From Octopus vulgaris (taxonomy: Eukaryota): 64,000 bases of DNA. The stretch covers positions 21,204,001 through 21,268,000 of the forward strand of contig OX597822.1 of the NCBI GenBank assembly GCA_951406725.2. Reading direction: 5' to 3'. Shown here in pieces: positions 4,253-62,717 of the stretch. The notes beneath the pieces are model-generated. The model saw only the letters and a list, made by a program, of their open reading frames with translations, was not told the origin of the DNA and ran no database searches. How positions within the stretch are numbered: position 1 is the first letter of the stretch; every line of letters starts with the position of its first letter. A program made the translations under genes and the position numbers.

Positions 4253-4378
4253 ATTTATTTTATAGAAGGAGTTTCTACAGGACTAGAGCTGTTTCATTCA
4301 AAAGAAATCATCAGGAAGCTTCCTGATGATTTCTTTTGAATGAAACAGTTCTAGTCCTGTAGAAGCTCCTTCTATAGA

Positions 4379-4565: not shown

Positions 4566-4712
4566 ACATTCGAAGCTTTCTTCCAGGGGATCTAATGCGC
4601 ATGGCTTAGATTTCCCTTGGCGGGCTGCCCATATCGGAGCAATCTCAAGATTAATCAGCCGAAATTGCTAAGATGATCTGGTTCTTGACTGATGACTGAG
4701 GGCTTCGAATGT
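4566..4712 (+). ncRNA. Rearranged (non-circularly permuted) hammerhead ribozyme, copy 1
   Basis: P1 4566-4580/4698-4712; P2 4583-4620; II ggctg 4623-27/cagcc 4656-60; III agcaa 4638-42/ttgct 4665-69; AUC cut after 4644; I tcaaga 4645-50/tcttga 4683-88; GAAA 4661-64; CTGATGA 4689-95. Confidence 0.7.
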
Positions 4713-4790: not shown

Positions 4791-8452
<3,662 letters not shown>

Positions 8453-8751
8453 TGGTTTCTGGCATATATTTATAGGAAATAAAGGATGTGAAAAAATATC
8501 AACAATAACATTACATTTATCAACGCTTCTTTATTTTCCAAGTGCCACCAGCCACCAGTAAACAAACTTTCCCTGTCAAAATAGTACTGAAATTCAAAGT
8601 TGTTAAACATGTGTTTTTACAAAGATTGTGAATACAGGTTGAACAGTAGGCTGCTATACATACATTGAAAATAACAAACATGCAGGTGCAGTTATTGAGG
8701 CATGGAAAAGCAAGTTCCATTTCTAGCATTAATGAAAATTCATTTTATATA

Positions 8752-15801: not shown

Positions 15802-16032
15802 TTCAGGTTCGAGTCCAAGCAGTGACCTGAATAAAAATAATAATAATAATAATAACAACATCGAAAAATACCTTAGGAATGAGAACCCAGGTTTGAAATT
15901 TCCCCTAGACACCTGATGAAGGCTGGATGATATATCAGCCAGAACGTTGTGTTAACAATGAACAAGATGAGGACAAATATCCATCAAATGTAAATAATGT
16001 ACATAATTCCTCATCTCCTAAATATAGAACTG
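15802..16032 (+). mobile_element. tRNA B-box fragment + (TAA)n + hammerhead-bearing unit (family H)
   Basis: ggttcgagtcc; body matches 41778-41951 (+), 40722-40875 (-) and 34045-34150 (-, partial). Confidence 0.75.
15908..15953 (+). ncRNA. Minimal hammerhead ribozyme, degenerate (GAAA reads AGAA)
   Basis: gacac-CTGATGA-a-ggctg..cagcc-agaa-cgtt-gtgtt; family consensus GAAACGTT has an AACGTT palindrome. Confidence 0.6.
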
Positions 16033-27561: not shown

Positions 27562-28009
27562 AATGTTTAATTTTGGGGAAACTTTATTTCAATGAAAGCG
27601 TATTTTATATGTGTGTGTGTGTGTTTGTACTAAAGAAAGCAAAAATAAAACAAAAATGATAGTGTTCAGTATGTTGATGACAGGAATTTCTGTCAGAGAC
27701 TTGGTAAAACAAGATTGTACATCATCTCCCTCTTTCTTTCACATACCCACTCTTTCTCTCTCTTTAATTATTACTCCCACTGCCACCATCAACACTACTA
27801 CTTTTAGTAAAACATCATCAACTCTCCCTAAATTTCTTTGTCTCTCTTTCTCTCCCTCTTTTTTCTTTCTCTCTCTGTCTTCACCACTGCCCTCACTGTC
27901 TCTATACCTACTATTACTCGCACCCCATCATGATGAATAGTAGGAATGTCAATGAATAGTGAGGAAGGGGGTCTAAGTGTGACATTAGTTTTCACATTTA
28001 TTATATTAG

Positions 28010-28094
<85 letters not shown>

Positions 28095-28101
<7 letters not shown>

Positions 28102-29002
28102 ACAATTTAATAAATAAAATATATGCATACATACATACATATATGCATGTAACTACATCTATATGTATATATACATGGATATGACTGAGCGCCTCGCGTC
28201 ATTTCGTTTCTTATCCTCCAAGTAAGTTTTTATATATAATTATGACGCGCACTCTCTAACCCTTTACTTGACCTTTCCTTCCTTCCTGTCTGTCTTCCTC
28301 TCTACCTGTCTCTCTCCTTATTTTTCACCCTTTCTGGTTTCCTTTCCTCTCTATCTCTCTCTCTCCCACTCCCTCCTCTCTCTCACTGCTGAGTGGACTA
28401 CTAACTTTCTTTTGCTCATAGCTTTCAACAAGTCAACATTGACTTTTTCTGTCTCTGGCAAGTCGATTCTGAATTGCGCTCCAACGAATTTTTCCACCGT
28501 CTAGGCTTAAAAAAGCCCTCAATGTTGGTTTCATTGTCCTGTTTTTATTCTTTATGTGTACTGTATTTTCATTCGTATTGCTTTTACGTCCTGTTCTTGT
28601 CACTTTTTTTTCCTTGTTTTACCCCTCTGCAAAGGAATTTTATTTAATTCATTTTGCAGGAAGGATTGCTTTGGCCGGATCATGTTCTGCCCTTACCTTC
28701 GAAACACGCATTGAGTCGAACCAGGGGCAGCTGATGAAGGGGAATATTCCTTGTATTGTTTGTCTTGTACTCTGTTTTTTCGTTGTTAAAAAAAGTCCGT
28801 TTCCTTGTTAGTTTTTATGTTTTCGTTTCTCATTGTGTTCTACATTTATTAGTGGTGTCCTGTAATTATATATATATATGCATGTATATATACATATAGA
28901 TGTAGGTACGTACATATATGTATGTATGCATATATCTTATTTATTAAATTGTTATTATATGACTGAGCGCCTCGTGTCATTTCGTTTCTTATCCTCCAAG
29001 TA

Positions 29003-29007
<5 letters not shown>
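28095..29007 (+). mobile_element. Non-autonomous Penelope-like/retrozyme-type element: 5' inverted segment plus terminal direct repeat
   Basis: ~48-bp direct repeat at 28181-28228 and 28959-29007; 28095-28177 is an inverted copy of 28880-28959; in (TA)n; carries an HHR. Confidence 0.7.
28622..28742 (+). ncRNA. Rearranged hammerhead ribozyme, copy 2
   Basis: P1 cccct 28622-26/agggg 28738-42; P2 28627-28659; II gaagg 28660-64/ccttc 28696-700; III catg/cacg (one mismatch, CpG-type); GUU cut after 28686; I ctgccctt/aggggcag; GAAA 28701-04; CTGATGA 28731-37. Confidence 0.7.
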
Positions 29008-29034
<27 letters not shown>

Positions 29035-29037
<3 letters not shown>

Positions 29038-29350
29038 TCATTTAATGTTTATCTTCTATGCTGGCATGGGTTGGACAGTTCGACTGGAGCTGGCCAATGG
29101 GGTGCTGTCCAGACTCCAGTTGTCTGTTGTGGCATGGTTTTTAAGGCTGGATACCCTTCCTAACACCAGCCACTTTACAGAGTGTGCTGAGTACCTATCA
29201 CATGCCACCAGTATGGGTGTGTTTATGCAGCACTGGCATCAATGTGCATTTTATGTGGTACCAGCACGTTAAAGGACAAGCCAGTATGCATGATAAGTGA
29301 TTTTACTTAGCTTGATGTGTCTTCTCAAGTACAGCAAATTGCTTCAACTC
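29035..29350 (-). mobile_element. SINE family C, diverged
   Basis: catcatttaatgt..catgggttggac..ggctggatacccttcctaacacc. Confidence 0.7.
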
Positions 29351-40903: not shown

Positions 40904-41655
40904 GTGAAGCCATATCCCGTGGCCCCTACCTGGGACGTAGTCAGTCCACCTGTGCATACCTTCCTTATTGTGACACTTGAGAAGACCTGTTGAGGCAAGT
41001 GAAAATCAAAATCAAAACCAAATCAAAATAGATGTACATCAATGGAATTTGTATCCTATTTGTATCCTTTTATGGTACCAGTGCCGGTGGCACATAAGAA
41101 AACCATCTGAACGTGACCGTAGCCAGTACCGCATCAACTGGCCTCCGTGCTGAGGGCACATAACAAACACCATCCGAGCGTGGCCGTTCGCCAGCCTCGT
41201 CTGGCACCTGTGCCGGTGACACATAAGAAAACACCATCCGAGCGTGGCCGTCTGCCAGCCTCGTCTGGCACCTGTGTCGGTGGCACATAAAAAAACACCA
41301 TCCGAGTGTGGCCGTCTGCCAGTCTCATCTGGCACCTGTGTCGGTGGCACATAAAAAACACCATCCGAGCGTGGCCGTCTGCCAGCCTCGTCTGGCACCT
41401 GTGTCGGTGGCACATAAAAAACACCATCCGAGCGTGGCCGTCTGCCAGCCTCGTCTGGCATCTGTGCCGGTGGCACATAAAATCACCCACTACACTCTCG
41501 GAGTGGTTGGCGTTAGGAAGGGCATCCAGCTGTAGAAACACTGCCAGATCTGACTGGCCTGGTGCAGCCTTCGGGCTTGCCAGACCCCAGTTGACCCGTC
41601 CAACCCATGCTAGCATGGAAAGCGGACGTTAAACGATGATGATGATGATGATGAT
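40904..41655 (+). mobile_element. Long SINE family C copy with internal ~63-bp tandem repeats
   Basis: (GAT)n tail; repeated unit gtgycggtggcacataaaaaacaccatccgagcgtggccgtctgccagcctcgtctggcacct. Confidence 0.85.
41155..41480. repeat. ~63-bp minisatellite, about 5 copies
   Basis: Units start near 41210, 41274, 41338, 41401 and 41464, with diverged units upstream. Confidence 0.9.
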
Positions 41656-43860: not shown

Positions 43861-47962
<4,102 letters not shown>

Positions 47963-50900
47963 ATGATATAATACGTAGTGTGTGATGTGTGAGTCTTAGC
48001 TAAATATTTTGCATTATCAGCATCTAGAGGTTTAGAGGTGATATAATAATGATAATAATAATAATATTCTGTGACCAGCCGGGCAATCTGTTTTAGATTA
48101 AATAGTTAGTACAATTAATCTTACTATATTATTGATTCATATGTTATTAACCTTTGATGAGTGAAAAATTACATTGGCTCCTATCAGAAATAATGATAGC
48201 TTTGAAGAATATAAGAATTATTGCTTTCCTATTCATGGCATGTAATTTTTAACCAGTTGTGTCTCAGTTTCTCACCTTATTACAGAGAAACTGAATTTGG
48301 GAAGCATAACTGTTTTGGATTTAAAATCTGTTGAATTTCTACAAGTAGGATGTGAAGGTTTAAAGGTACCCTATATAGAGGTATCATTAAGTGTCTAAGT
48401 ATATTTACTATCATTTGTTTCATATCCATAATAGGTACAGGTTTGACTGTGGTTAAACTTCCTTCTTACTCATTTAGTTTTGGGTTCAGTTCCACTGCAT
48501 GATGCTTTGGTCTTCTACTATAACACCAGGCCAACCAAAGTCACGCGAGTGGATTTGGTAGACAGAAACTGAAAGAAGCTCATTGTGTGTGTGTGTGTGT
48601 GTGTGTGTGTGATTTTCTTGAATCACGTGATGGTTTGTAAATGTGTGTAGCCATCATACAAGCAATGTTGTCCATTTCTAGTCTTCTGGAGAAAGCATGT
48701 CTGCCCATAGTAAATATTACTAAGTTTGAAAACAGACAAGGGTTTGCAACAGAGATAGCTGCGGAAAATTTGCCTCAGTAAATTTCATCTTACTCATGCA
48801 AGCTCAGTAAAATAATTATTGAATTACAATGACGATCCACCACACTAAGTGATTATAATTTCTTAGATAGCAACTATGCCAATGATTAAAAATATAGTTC
48901 ATTGAATCAACTACCTGACATATGACTGATATTTAACCATTCCGAAAAGTATCATCAAAACAGTGGACTCTCTAGAAATCACAGCTAATTTTCCCCAAAA
49001 TACACCCATCTATTTCAAAGAAAGTAGAAACATTGGATAAAAATTTATGGTCATACCTTTTAAATGCTTTTGAGCATTTATTTGCTGAATCAGGGCTAAC
49101 CTGGTGTTAATCAGCTGCAATCATGGGTATTTATTTGGTTTTAGAAAGATGAAATCTAAAGGTGAACAGAGATGTTATTTATAAACGCAAAATATAAATG
49201 GATATAAGAATTAACTTATCATGGTCCCATATTGGTTACATCAGCATTACTGTTGGTGTTGCTTTATCTTCATTTTCCATGCTGATAAGGTTTGCTGCTC
49301 TCTTAGACAGCCTGGAGATCCACGTCTCACCTGTAAGCTGTATTTCTGGCTTGGTTTCCACTGATGAATATCCTTTCTAATCCTAATCACTTTACAGAGT
49401 TTATTGGGTGCACTATTTTGCTACCAGTATGAGAGAGTTTGGCAAATCTTTGGCAAATCTAAAGGTACCTTTTGACACCACATTTAACAGTGCACAAGAT
49501 GCATTTAGCATTGCAGCAGAAGTAGTGTTGGTGCATTTCAGGAAGCATGGAAATTTTGAGAGAATTTTAGAGAGGAAAGAAGTGAGAGCTTGATGGATGG
49601 CATGAACTGGATAAATGGGGAGAGTGAATGAAGGATGTGGAATAATAATAATAATAATAATAATGATCGCTGTCCACATAATAATTCTGAGAAACTACAT
49701 TACTTAGCAGAAGCAATCATAGAAGTTAGCTGGGTTTATAATCAGATTAGAATCATTAAGAAAAATTCTTCATTTGTAATTTGTTCCACTGAAATCCAAC
49801 ATAATTGCTTCTGTAAAGCCCTCATTAGTTTACTTAGCAGAGTCTTAGCTTCTTTCCAGAGAATAACAACATTAGAATTTGCAAATTTTTGAACAATCTC
49901 TGAAAGCAATTTTGATTGAAGATGTATTCTGTTCTTTTGTGATATAAGACAAGAAACTCTTGATTTATGTTTGATCTGTGAAATCATGAATAACTATATA
50001 TAACTACATGTAATAGCCTGAGACAGTATACTGTGTAAGGTATTTAGAAGGATATCCATTATAAAGTTCTCTTTACAGTTACATACATGCAATATACAAT
50101 TAATTATCATACTTAATCACACATAATCTGCAATTAATGTAACAGCTGTGATTGGATAAATTTGTTTAATCCATAACATAATTTAGAAACAAAAAGCCAC
50201 CATTTTATGAATTAATGGTGGTTTTGATATATTCTCACAAATCTTAACACACCTACATGTTACCTCCCTAGGTATTAGATAATATGTGGAGTATACAACA
50301 TAGCAGAATGGCTAGAAAGTTTACATTGCTATCATGAGGATCTGGGTTCAATCCCACTGCGTGGCATCTTGGGCGTTGATTTTTTTTTTTACTAGTGTCT
50401 TGAGCTGATCCAAACCTTGTGAGTAAAATTAACTGGATGGAAACTGTGAGGAAGCCTGTCAGATGGATTGTGTCTGTAATTCAGATGTACAACCTTGTCA
50501 CATACTGTGTCAAGCTGATTTTACCCGAGGTTTATGCTGTTGGTATTTGTGTCTGTAGAATGTTCAGTAACTTACATGTTAATTTAATGAGCAGGTTATT
50601 TAGTTGATCAAATGATTGAAACTCATAGAGAATCATTTATTTTCTCCTTTAAGTAATATTTGGAAGAAAGTGATAGTATCTGAGCTTGAATTGGGCAATG
50701 AATATTGGATATTTAACTAATCAAACATAGAAACATTTCTAACTATAAATTGAAACTGGCCCCTTTGTTCTCAGAACAAAACTTAAGACAATATTCTACT
50801 GCAGCTGCCACTATTAACTCTTAATGAACATTTTGTCTTGTAATGAGGAGGTGCCAGAAGAACTTGGCAAAAGATGAGACAACATCCTGCAAGGCTCTTG

Positions 50901-59472: not shown

Positions 59473-59833
59473 ACACACACACGAGCACACACACAATGAT
59501 TATTTTAAAACATGTTTGTTGTTTATTATATCAATGGAGAACAATGGAATGGTAGAAACATAAACAAAGTGGACTAAATATATGAAAAATAATTACATTT
59601 CTCCAGCTACATTCTTGATTGAAGATTGATTTTTACGTTTACCCTTTGGTATGATGACTTTTGAAAGACATAAATAACAATTCTGACTGATGCTGTATTA
59701 ACAGCAATTTACAATCAACTGTCAAATTGTAAAACACTGCCATCACAAGACTTATATGTACATGTGTAGGAATTACAACCGTGTTTCATGGTCTGCTACC
59801 ACAACAGCTCCTTTATAGGATCCAGTTAGCTCT

Positions 59834-59920
59834 AGACATCATCAGGAGGAACCACGTCCGGTTTCGGCCCCTACACCTCTACCGTTTTGACGTGGCGGGT
59901 GCCCCCTTTTGGAGGTGTCT
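59834..59920 (-). ncRNA. Rearranged hammerhead ribozyme, copy 3, in a GC-rich element (~59765-60310)
   Basis: On -: agaca(P1) cc tcc aaaa ggg(P2) ggcaccc(II) g ccacgtc aaaa cgg(III') TA gagg(I) tgta ggggcc(II') GAAA ccg gacgtgg(III) tt cctc(I') CTGATGA tgtct(P1'); GUA cut between 59880 and 59879. Confidence 0.7.
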
Positions 59921-62717
59921 TCAGCTCTGGTGCTGGGTGCATGTCTTCTTTCTTCTGTTCCCTGGCCTCTTCGATGTATCATCAGTGAGTGTCAGTCGGT
60001 GACTGACTGACTTGTCAAATTTTTCCCGTTAAATACCCGCTGCTAGGCTCCAGCAGGCAGCCCCAGCAAGTTGTCACATGACACTGTCTCACCTTAACTG
60101 ACTAGTGAAGGCGTGTAGTTTTAGCCCATGCTTTTTCTAAATGACCGTCACCTGTCAGCCAGCGAAGCTGATTCAGTCAGCTTGTCTCACCTAATAATGT
60201 TATTTCCCGTTGGCATGTTTATGACTTTCAAGCCATTTTCGGTCTTCCCGCTTCAGCTATATATAGAAGTTGGCTTTTTCAACCGCCTCCTGTACTCTCC
60301 TTATTAGTTTATGCAGCTCAGGGCTAGAAAAAACAAATCTTATGTGTGTGTGTGTGCTTGGTGCAGGTATGTGGCTTAGTGACTACAGTTTGGAGCTCAT
60401 GTTCATTAGATTTTGGGTTCAATTCTCAGCTTAGGAAGCACATTGTATCCTTGAACATGGCACATTTTCATGTTGTCTAAGTCCTCTCAAGTGAAAATTA
60501 GTACCAGTGGGTACTTGTAAGCAACTCTGTGACAAACTAGTATCCCATTCAGAGGATGGTCCTGTATACTCTGTTGCCTAAAGGTCTTTGAATTCTGGAT
60601 AGGATTAGCCCACTTGAGCCTTTATGCTTGAAGCAAAGTTTAACAAACAGTCTGTGTGTGCATGTGTGTGTGTGCGTGTGTGTATGTGTGTGTGTGAACT
60701 GTTTGAACTTATTTCACTGAACCAGTAAGCTCTTCTATCATTTTACATATTCATACTTTATGTAGTTGTTAAATATGTGTATGTCTATGAGCAATTTGTT
60801 AACTGTATGTTTGTATATGAAATGTACACATATTTGGAATATATATAGGTGTGTGTGTGTGTAGTGAAAAAGTTTGTGTGTGAATTTAATACTCATACAT
60901 TTAGCTCCACTGTTTGCATAGATTATATGATTAAATCTTGGGGTTCTTTCTGCAGATGAACAACTTGACTAGTTTTCTCTGGCTGCAATAATTCTTTAGC
61001 TTGATCTTCTGGGAAGGCATTGTCATTAAACCATAGTGTTTATTTGCACAACAAAGCTGATTGTTTGAGTGTGTGTGTGTGTGGGGGGGGTAAAATGAAC
61101 ATGAAATCAAATGAACAAATATATAATGAAATTTTGATACAGAATTTTATTATTTGCAATCTTGTATATATATTAGAACAAACATAATATCCTATGGTCA
61201 GTGGTTCGATTTTTTTTTTTTTATGACAAAAAATATTAGTGTTATGCTAAATATCTTGAATGTAGTTTCTCCCCATCAAAGTTAACTTTGGCTTTCAGTC
61301 ATACTATGACAAGAACCAGTCTTGTATTGGATCATTTCAATTTGTGATACCTTGTTACATAGGTTTGTGACCTTCAGTCAGAATTAGATCTTGCTTGGAC
61401 TTTGTAGCAAATGTAATTCCTCTCGTGTTGCATATTGGAAATTGAGAAATTTGCAAATTGCAATTGCTGAAATTTTATCCTGTGCCTTTATTTGTAGTAA
61501 TGGTTTGTGTATTCTATCAAATGACTGCAAAGTAGTAGTTAGGTTTTTTTAAATTGGCAGTAATCTCTGTAGGCTACTCTGAATCCTTTTGAGATTGGTT
61601 TCTTATCCTTAATGTTTTAGAAAACTTCAGCGGGGTGAAAGTCATCATTCTTGGCTATTTCTTAAGCTGTTTTATAGGCAATGATTGTAGAAATGTCACT
61701 TGCATTTAATATGGCTAATTAGTAGAGCCTGAAATGAGATTACAAAATTATGGTTAAATCAGAAGGGTTCCTCTATAATTATTACACAACAAGAAAACAT
61801 ATTTGATCCAGTATTATAAGAAACATTAACATGTATTGGAAACAAAAAGATGCTTATTCTCTGCTAATATTTTGAGTACTGTATTTTCTGGCATTCAAAC
61901 TGACATAGCTTATAGTGTAAATACTCAAATATCATCACTATCTTTTCAAATTCTGCTGTATTTCACTTGGAATTTTTGGTCCTCCAAAGTCATCATGATG
62001 TGTAAGTCAACATACCTGTTTTAACTGTAAATTTTAGTCTGAAAACTTTGACTCAGAAATATGGTATATGTCTTGTACCACTTTTATAGCCACCATCATA
62101 TATAAGGAAGTATATGTGTGAACACATATTGCGTTCTATTGTTTGTGTAACTGATTAAGTTTCACATACATATTATACAAGATAACACTGGAAAACTGAC
62201 TCCACCTACTTGAACAATTTTGGACTCACCAAACAGAACTTACAAGGAAATATTCAAACTACCAAATCAATGTAAAAAGTGGCAACAAACAGTGGCATAT
62301 AATTTTTTAATGATTGAATATGTTAGATAATCAGAATGGTAGCTGACACTTGGAATATTCTACAACATTTTAGATACACTTTATTGATTTTAAGAGGCTT
62401 CTGGTGATTATTAATATTTTCAAAAGAAAATTTTCATAAACATTTGCTCTATTGAATATATTTTAAACATTCCTAATTAATTTCTTATTTTAATTTAGAT
62501 AATTTAATACAGTTAAATAAATATATAAAGCGTGCAATACTGTTTGTTTCAAAAATTTTTCCCCTAAAGATTTCCTAGTAATTTTTAATAATTTTACTGA
62601 TTAAATTTGGATATAAAATTGTTCATTTAAATCTGCCTCTAGTTCTTGTTCGATCAGGAAATATTTTGCAACTATTGCAGCAGATTATGCTGCAAAATAC
62701 TGTCTCTTTCTCTTTTG

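Follow-up and report, generated by a model that had tools for sequence, protein, structure and literature searches.

The window, a stretch of 64,000 nucleotides from Octopus vulgaris (contig OX597822.1), consists of AT- and microsatellite-rich DNA in a genome of 2.8 Gb, and a repeated element was found within 28065–29035. It contains a direct repeat of 51 bp, whose two copies are identical at 50 of 51 positions and lie 778 bp apart, and (TA)n tracts flank the element on both sides (Table 1). The first repeat copy, which ends in GTAAGTTT, contains the sequence GTAAGT, a putative splice donor, and on the 5′ side lies an inverted copy of sequence from near the 3′ end of the unit. No coding ORF was found in the element, the longest stop-to-stop frame (112 aa, 28473–28811) having no Pfam match. 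These data bear out the initial annotation of the locus, which had described a terminal direct repeat with a GTAAGT motif, a period of about 780 bp, a 5′ inverted segment, (TA)n flanks and the absence of an ORF. In the Rfam searches, nothing in the window reached the gathering score, and 28000–29100 yielded no hammerhead at E ≤ 10.

The search for repeats in the whole window was dominated by (TA)n, two tracts of which, at 5956–8453 and 43863–47970, extend over 2.5 and 4.1 kb. Elsewhere in the window, a 63-bp minisatellite of 5.2 copies (41155–41482), two mariner-type transposase fragments (PF01359; 9152–9646 and 52201–53127, both on the minus strand) and an RT fragment (PF00078; 14093–15202, minus strand) were observed.

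Table 1. Features of the element and of the ribozyme motif predicted within it (window coordinates)
Feature	Positions	Strand	Remarks
Left (TA)n target microsatellite	28065–28098	.	
Inverted 5′-truncated piece, PLE-type 5′ inversion	28094–28182	-	Reverse complement of 28876–28960, 89.9% identity over 89 columns
Monomer start: first copy of 51-bp tail/pseudo-LTR segment	28179–28229	+	GTAAGT at 28222–28227
Pyrimidine-rich non-coding body, intron-like	28230–28621	+	Lost in many copies by 5′ truncation
Extra helix PX, 5′ strand	28622–28626	+	CCCCT; pairs with 28738–28742
Extra hairpin PY	28627–28659	+	Directly 5′ of G10.1; 5/7 pairs with double changes
Stem II, 5′ strand	28660–28664	+	G10.1 = 28660; pairs with 28696–28700; detached from CUGAUGA
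I-II helix, 5′ strand	28666–28675	+	Joins distal ends of stems I and II; pairs with 28715–28724
Block S	28681–28692	+	Stem III 3′ strand 28681–28685; U17 = 28686; stem I 5′ strand 28687–28692
Linker TTA; stem II, 3′ strand	28693–28695; 28696–28700	+	
GAAA; stem III, 5′ strand	28701–28704; 28704–28708	+	
I-II helix, 3′ strand; stem I, 3′ strand	28715–28724; 28725–28730	+	
CUGAUGA core; PX, 3′ strand	28731–28737; 28738–28742	+	
U-rich 3′ region and TA-rich terminal segment	28743–28960	+	Commonest family 3′ end at about 28960
Optional 3′ tail: second copy of 51-bp segment	28957–29007	+	
Right (TA)n target microsatellite	29007–29035	.	

Within the element, the conserved blocks of a hammerhead ribozyme run in the order S-G-C (cleavage site, GAAA, CUGAUGA), with a predicted cut between 28686 and 28687, which agrees with the rearranged hammerhead and the cleavage site proposed before. 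Throughout the genome, GAAAC placed before CTGATGAAG gave 2973 matches compared to 67 for the reversed control, and a second pattern, GAAAC before CUGAnGA, gave 3286 compared to 318. Of 207 distinct G..C hits, 141 (11 clusters) had an S block that closes a stem I of 6 bp and a stem III of 5 bp, against 15/182 when the upstream parts were swapped between clusters; the filters imposed the core, U16.1, a non-G at 17 and a G at 10.1, and the clusters are related, so these counts are not independent results. The 66 of 207 hits lacking an S block were excluded from the helix counts, and by inspection many of them are truncated copies, canonical hammerheads or chance matches. The core CUGAnGA, the GAAA, the UH site and the G10.1:C11.1 and A15.1:U16.1 pairs are all present, in part imposed by the filters.

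The lesion that had been noted at A28682 is indeed private to the window copy, the position being G in 28 of 30 aligned copies, and stems I–III together with the core are exactly intact in only 7/30. The change probably impairs the window copy, and because of this mismatch in stem III the locus is not the best one for an assay, contrary to what had been suggested.

Other hammerhead-like sequences occur in the window, where a descriptor that assumed a contiguous block C missed two of three motifs. Another family (cluster 3) is represented by a second split-core S-G-C motif at 4578–4702 on the plus strand; this motif has a predicted cut after 4644, GAAA at 4661 and the core at 4689–4695, and is probably copy 1 of the initial annotation. 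A third, at about 59830–59925, closely resembles the motif of Naiad_Plae and belongs to a non-coding family of about 575 bp (59768–60341, minus strand) with 1879 first-look candidates. Decayed copies of a repeat with a canonical-order minimal type I hammerhead, bearing an extra A after CUGAUGA, were found at 15913 (+), 41832 (+) and about 40816 (-), and a near-perfect palindrome of about 110 bp at about 4260–4375 carries CTGATGA on both strands, a similar one being present in locus L082.

The motif begins at 28622, 60 nt further upstream than the cleavage block, and it is in this upstream part that the 5′ strand of stem II is predicted: in the window copy, GAAGG (28660–28664) pairs with CCTTC (28696–28700). 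In cluster-balanced copies, the upstream stem II was paired at 5/5 positions in 18/24, compared to 92/514 for swapped combinations, and the I-II helix passed in 19/23 compared to 105/492. Stem II, PX and PY jointly passed in 7/24 against 3/514 swapped; PX and PY alone gave a weaker signal (10/24 against 74/514) and passed a strict test in 2/21 Naiad-UTR copies and 1/10 family-C copies. These cluster-balanced tests used more loci and a mismatch-tolerant score, unlike an earlier strict test that gave 7/14 against 15/182 for the upstream stem II and 3/14 against 11/182 for PX and PY.

Stems I and III showed three to five pair types at most positions over the 11 clusters, stem I covarying over 6 bp, and PY fills the gap between PX and G10.1 without an unpaired base. 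The distance from stem I to G12 is 8 nt in 91/141 copies, which corresponds to a linker of 3 nt followed by a stem II of 5 bp, so the earlier view of a P1-P2-II junction devoid of unpaired linker bases does not hold. In an independent MAFFT alignment of 15 copies thinned to <90% identity, the upstream stem II was 98.7% paired, with double changes at 3/5 pairs, compared to 74.7% and 72.0% paired for the two downstream registers, and 22/38 pairs in the alignment had double changes, a count reached in 0/500 shuffles; kinship inflates these scores, and the structure was derived from the same families. A subfamily double change, GAACG/CGTTC, is one event counted many times, with 34 family-like among 41 listed matches against 9 discordant among 27 listed (classed by eye). 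Covariation is seen for stem I, the upstream-strand stem II, stem III, the I-II helix and PY, and PX is supported in some clusters only. Together, our data strongly suggest that the motif folds as a split-core hammerhead.

The same architecture is present in Naiad retrotransposons. The 3′UTR of the octopus Naiad in the supplement of PMC8557442 has both the architecture and the stem I sequence of the window family, and the octopus Naiad motif gave 937 matches in genome G000 compared to 0 for the control. Read by eye, at least 7 of 54 Naiad records (Naiad_Amil, Aacu, Anas, Plae, EuTe, Obim and Ovul) hold the split form, their hosts being corals, an acanthocephalan, a clam shrimp and octopus, and at least 8 records in the nematode part of the supplement hold unsplit CSG hammerheads; the two core words were sought at the first 60 of 81 and 58 of 62 places, and line breaks hide matches. 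Craig 2021 (PMC8557442) describes Naiads as lacking canonical hammerheads, with only the labels 'HHR_core' or 'HHR_half_core' given, and Naiad_Ovul is among the records labelled 'HHR_half_core'.

Could this conserved fold have lost its catalytic function and serve instead as a hammerhead-derived binding signal or 3′-end signal for the PLE protein? We consider this unlikely, even though the core is interrupted at A9/G10.1. Minimum-energy folds of the monomer do not yield the ribozyme, alternative folds being predicted as more stable: the nested part of the model reaches -24.8 compared to -43.9 kcal/mol, before the two pseudoknot helices are counted, and an alternative fold hides the core in the window copy. 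Moreover, hammerhead cleavage was dispensable for insertion by an anole PLE in vitro (PMC11167929). Against this, the seven Naiad records found by one core word also hold the other, and they have a UH site at the analogous place, with A, C or U at H17. Furthermore, stem I, with its 6 bp, and the short linker between stems I and II match those of cleaving SGC ribozymes, and nematode Naiads hold unsplit CSG forms at the same 3′ position. These observations argue for a self-cleaving split-core hammerhead, and that intact copies cleave is the outcome we would predict with fair confidence.

How the element spreads can be read from its copies. A 301-bp query returned 2931 first-look candidates, of which 40 were scored and proved 92–95% identical. 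Among 29 other loci, 5′ truncation occurs at differing points, an inverted piece abuts the copy in at least 7 and a head-to-tail partial copy lies upstream in 4, so the non-coding unit is multi-copy and partially tandem, as first described. The 3′ ends of the family cluster at about 28960, some copies continuing into a tail of about 47 nt from the 51-bp segment, and (TA)5 is found on the 3′ side in 30/32 pieces. Insertion into (TA)n is a preference of Naiads, not unique to them. Thus 5′ truncation, a partial tandem pLTR, an inverted 5′ copy and an optional 3′ tail are all present. Partial tandems, inverted 5′ copies, optional tails and AT-rich targets are given for PLEs in section 6 of PMC8557442 and in PMC11167929, and from this match we take the terminal repeat to be the PLE tail, slightly longer than the 30–40 bp described for PLEs. 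The element therefore has the usual PLE insertion pattern and is not a tandem retrozyme array.

The initial annotation had proposed a retrozyme-like or circular RNA intermediate; read in this way, the element would be a non-LTR retrozyme that amplifies through a circle of RNA, about 780 nt long, generated by the ribozyme. The element is indeed non-coding, ribozyme-bearing and multi-copy, and a locus of the sister subfamily (L200:1327–2861) holds two head-to-tail units with a period of 897 that are 98.6% identical and each contain the ribozyme motif; in addition, retrozymes themselves have been argued to be non-autonomous PLEs (10.64898/2026.07.22.740005), so the two readings overlap. However, the search for tandem copies that had been proposed uncovered only the partial head-to-tail copies (4/29) and no long array (0/29), the copies are 5′-truncated, show inversions and share a fixed 3′ end to which an optional tail is added, their ends do not coincide with the predicted cut, and the ribozyme does not belong to type I. 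We regard amplification through circular RNA as improbable.

In four sequencing runs that we guessed to be RNA, contigs covered the family, and neither a splice or back-splice joint nor a contig end at the predicted cut was seen in them, an uninformative outcome. GTAAGT is kept in the window family and absent from the sister family. As a splice acceptor we considered position 28659 (TTTTGCAG before G) and rejected it, since this sequence forms the 3′ arm of PY and is GCGG in related families.

The remaining alternative, that of an ordinary type-SGC ribozyme whose stem II would use the bases directly following CUGAUGA, the upstream helices being an inactive alternative state, is highly improbable: although a 4-bp G-C/G-U/G-U/G-C helix is possible in the downstream register of the window family and PLE hammerheads are found with an extra base after A9, 5/5 pairing was found in only 1/24 cluster-balanced copies (4/141 overall) and at most one double change compared to three for the upstream strand, and neither cluster 4 (the CCCC-tailed family) nor the Acropora Naiads can form such a helix, so covariation contradicts the plain SGC fold assumed at first.

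To identify the parent of the family, PLE coding sequences in the genome were compared with the positions of the motif. Upstream of one copy of the octopus Naiad motif there is an RT frame. Of the 30 loci most closely related to this RT, 6 have the motif or a variant downstream within 1.5 kb on the same strand as the RT, and 5 of 20 RT loci at a greater distance also have it downstream on that strand. One related locus encodes the CxC/GTKY segment of published octopus Naiads. No N-terminal EN was detected in 23 RT loci, and all Naiad-type RT copies examined were broken. The CxC/GTKY and RT remnants accompany the sister motif only; the window family looks somewhat younger, with a pairwise identity of 89–94% compared to 85%. 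No ORF-bearing parent of the window family was found, nor any significant DNA match between this family and the octopus Naiad 3′UTR outside the ribozyme, so its assignment as Naiad-type rests on the ribozyme and the target. From the absence of an ORF the element would be non-autonomous.

Two multi-copy PLE families with a long open frame for RT plus GIY-YIG at the C terminus (781 and 753 aa) were observed at L120:2745–5087 and L247–L251. As candidate parents, these young C-terminal-EN families were rejected: their 3′ regions lack the motif, the motif copies near them look like separate insertions, and no canonical or permuted hammerhead was found near their 3′ ends with the patterns used. The RT fragments beside L022, L174 and L128 were other or spurious matches. 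The element is likely a non-autonomous dependent of Naiad retrotransposons, and the mobilising enzyme may be another PLE.

Based on these data, we propose, with a probability of about two in three, that the locus holds a high-copy 778-bp element, likely a non-autonomous PLE of Naiad type, which carries a non-circularly permuted split-core hammerhead that would likely cleave after U28686 if intact. In this ribozyme, PX and PY, which meet without a gap, might stack on each other and so keep A9 one step away from G10.1, replacing the A9–G10.1 backbone link as a four-way junction; with the link so replaced, A9 could still stack on G10.1:C11.1. Single-base insertions at the A9/G10.1 step occur in PLE hammerheads and also in a viroid hammerhead. 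Stem III is connected to the I-II helix by linkers of 0 and 4 nt in cluster 1 and, on one side, of 1 nt in Acropora, and linkers as short as these, which seem hard to close in one molecule, suggest that two transcript copies might swap strands and cut as a dimer. PLE hammerheads reportedly cut as dimers, and we put forward dimer cleavage by strand swapping tentatively, at somewhat under even odds. The RNA would be copied in trans into (TA)n by a PLE RT/GIY-YIG protein.

As to its origin, the split-core form may have arisen from the CSG type of nematode Naiads via tandem duplication and re-opening of the chain: a CSG ribozyme whose 3′ end is joined to its 5′ end and which is re-opened after A9 would have exactly this order, and a tandem element could produce such a rearrangement. 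A wider and more doubtful extension is that Naiads across many animal phyla carry active permuted hammerheads, which would be split, with a four-way junction and dimer cleavage, in cnidarians, acanthocephalans, crustaceans and cephalopods.

If the proposal is true, the reported absence of hammerheads in Naiads is settled, since a scrambled order that likely still cuts itself, unmatched by standard descriptors, would explain it. Non-circular permutations would move from orphan metatranscriptome contigs to an animal mobile-element context, and the assumption that CUGAnGA and stem II are contiguous would be broken. The core would also offer a natural four-way-junction insertion point, useful for ribozyme structure and switch design.

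Among known ribozymes, those closest to the window motif are the non-circularly permuted type-SGC (HRIMA-1) and type-CSG hammerheads of Eckert 2023 (PMC10085705). Common to the SGC type and the window motif are the S-G-C order of site, GAAA and CUGAnGA, a stem I 5′ strand about 3 nt from the stem II 3′ strand, and an extra helix ('I') that connects stems I and II on their other sides. Unlike in the Eckert SGC ribozymes, the 5′ strand of stem II lies about 75 nt upstream here, and PX and PY are inserted between A9 and G10.1. According to the same paper, SGC forms came from metatranscriptomes and CSG forms from metagenomes, with none in genomes of known organisms, and block C is assumed not to be splittable; the window motif, in contrast, is present in thousands of animal genomic copies. 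In the literature searched, which left most subscription papers outside, we found no permuted hammerheads in PLEs, no split block C and no natural hammerhead in which A9 and G10.1 are separated by helices; PMC3088659 lists only small core insertions.

With minimal type I PLE hammerheads (Hydra, Penelope/Poseidon), the window motif shares a position near the 3′ end and the tolerance of an extra base after A9, but these have the canonical order and a hairpin stem II. Like the animal non-LTR retrozymes of 10.64898/2026.07.22.740005, the family consists of non-coding, hammerhead-bearing, PLE-dependent repeats; unlike these, which are tandem units with a type I ribozyme each, and for which type I descriptors were used, it is dispersed, PLE-shaped and split-core. 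With Naiads, as described in PMC8557442, the element shares the (TA)n target, 5′ truncation, partial tandems, an inverted 5′ copy and an optional tail, as well as the ribozyme architecture of seven consensus 3′UTRs, stem I being identical in the octopus ones; different from Naiads, whose ORF encodes an N-terminal GIY-YIG, CxC, DKA/DKG and RT, it has no ORF and measures 778 bp compared to 3.4–4.4 kb. The split-core motif is thus a novel form of a known ribozyme class, carried by a likely non-autonomous PLE.
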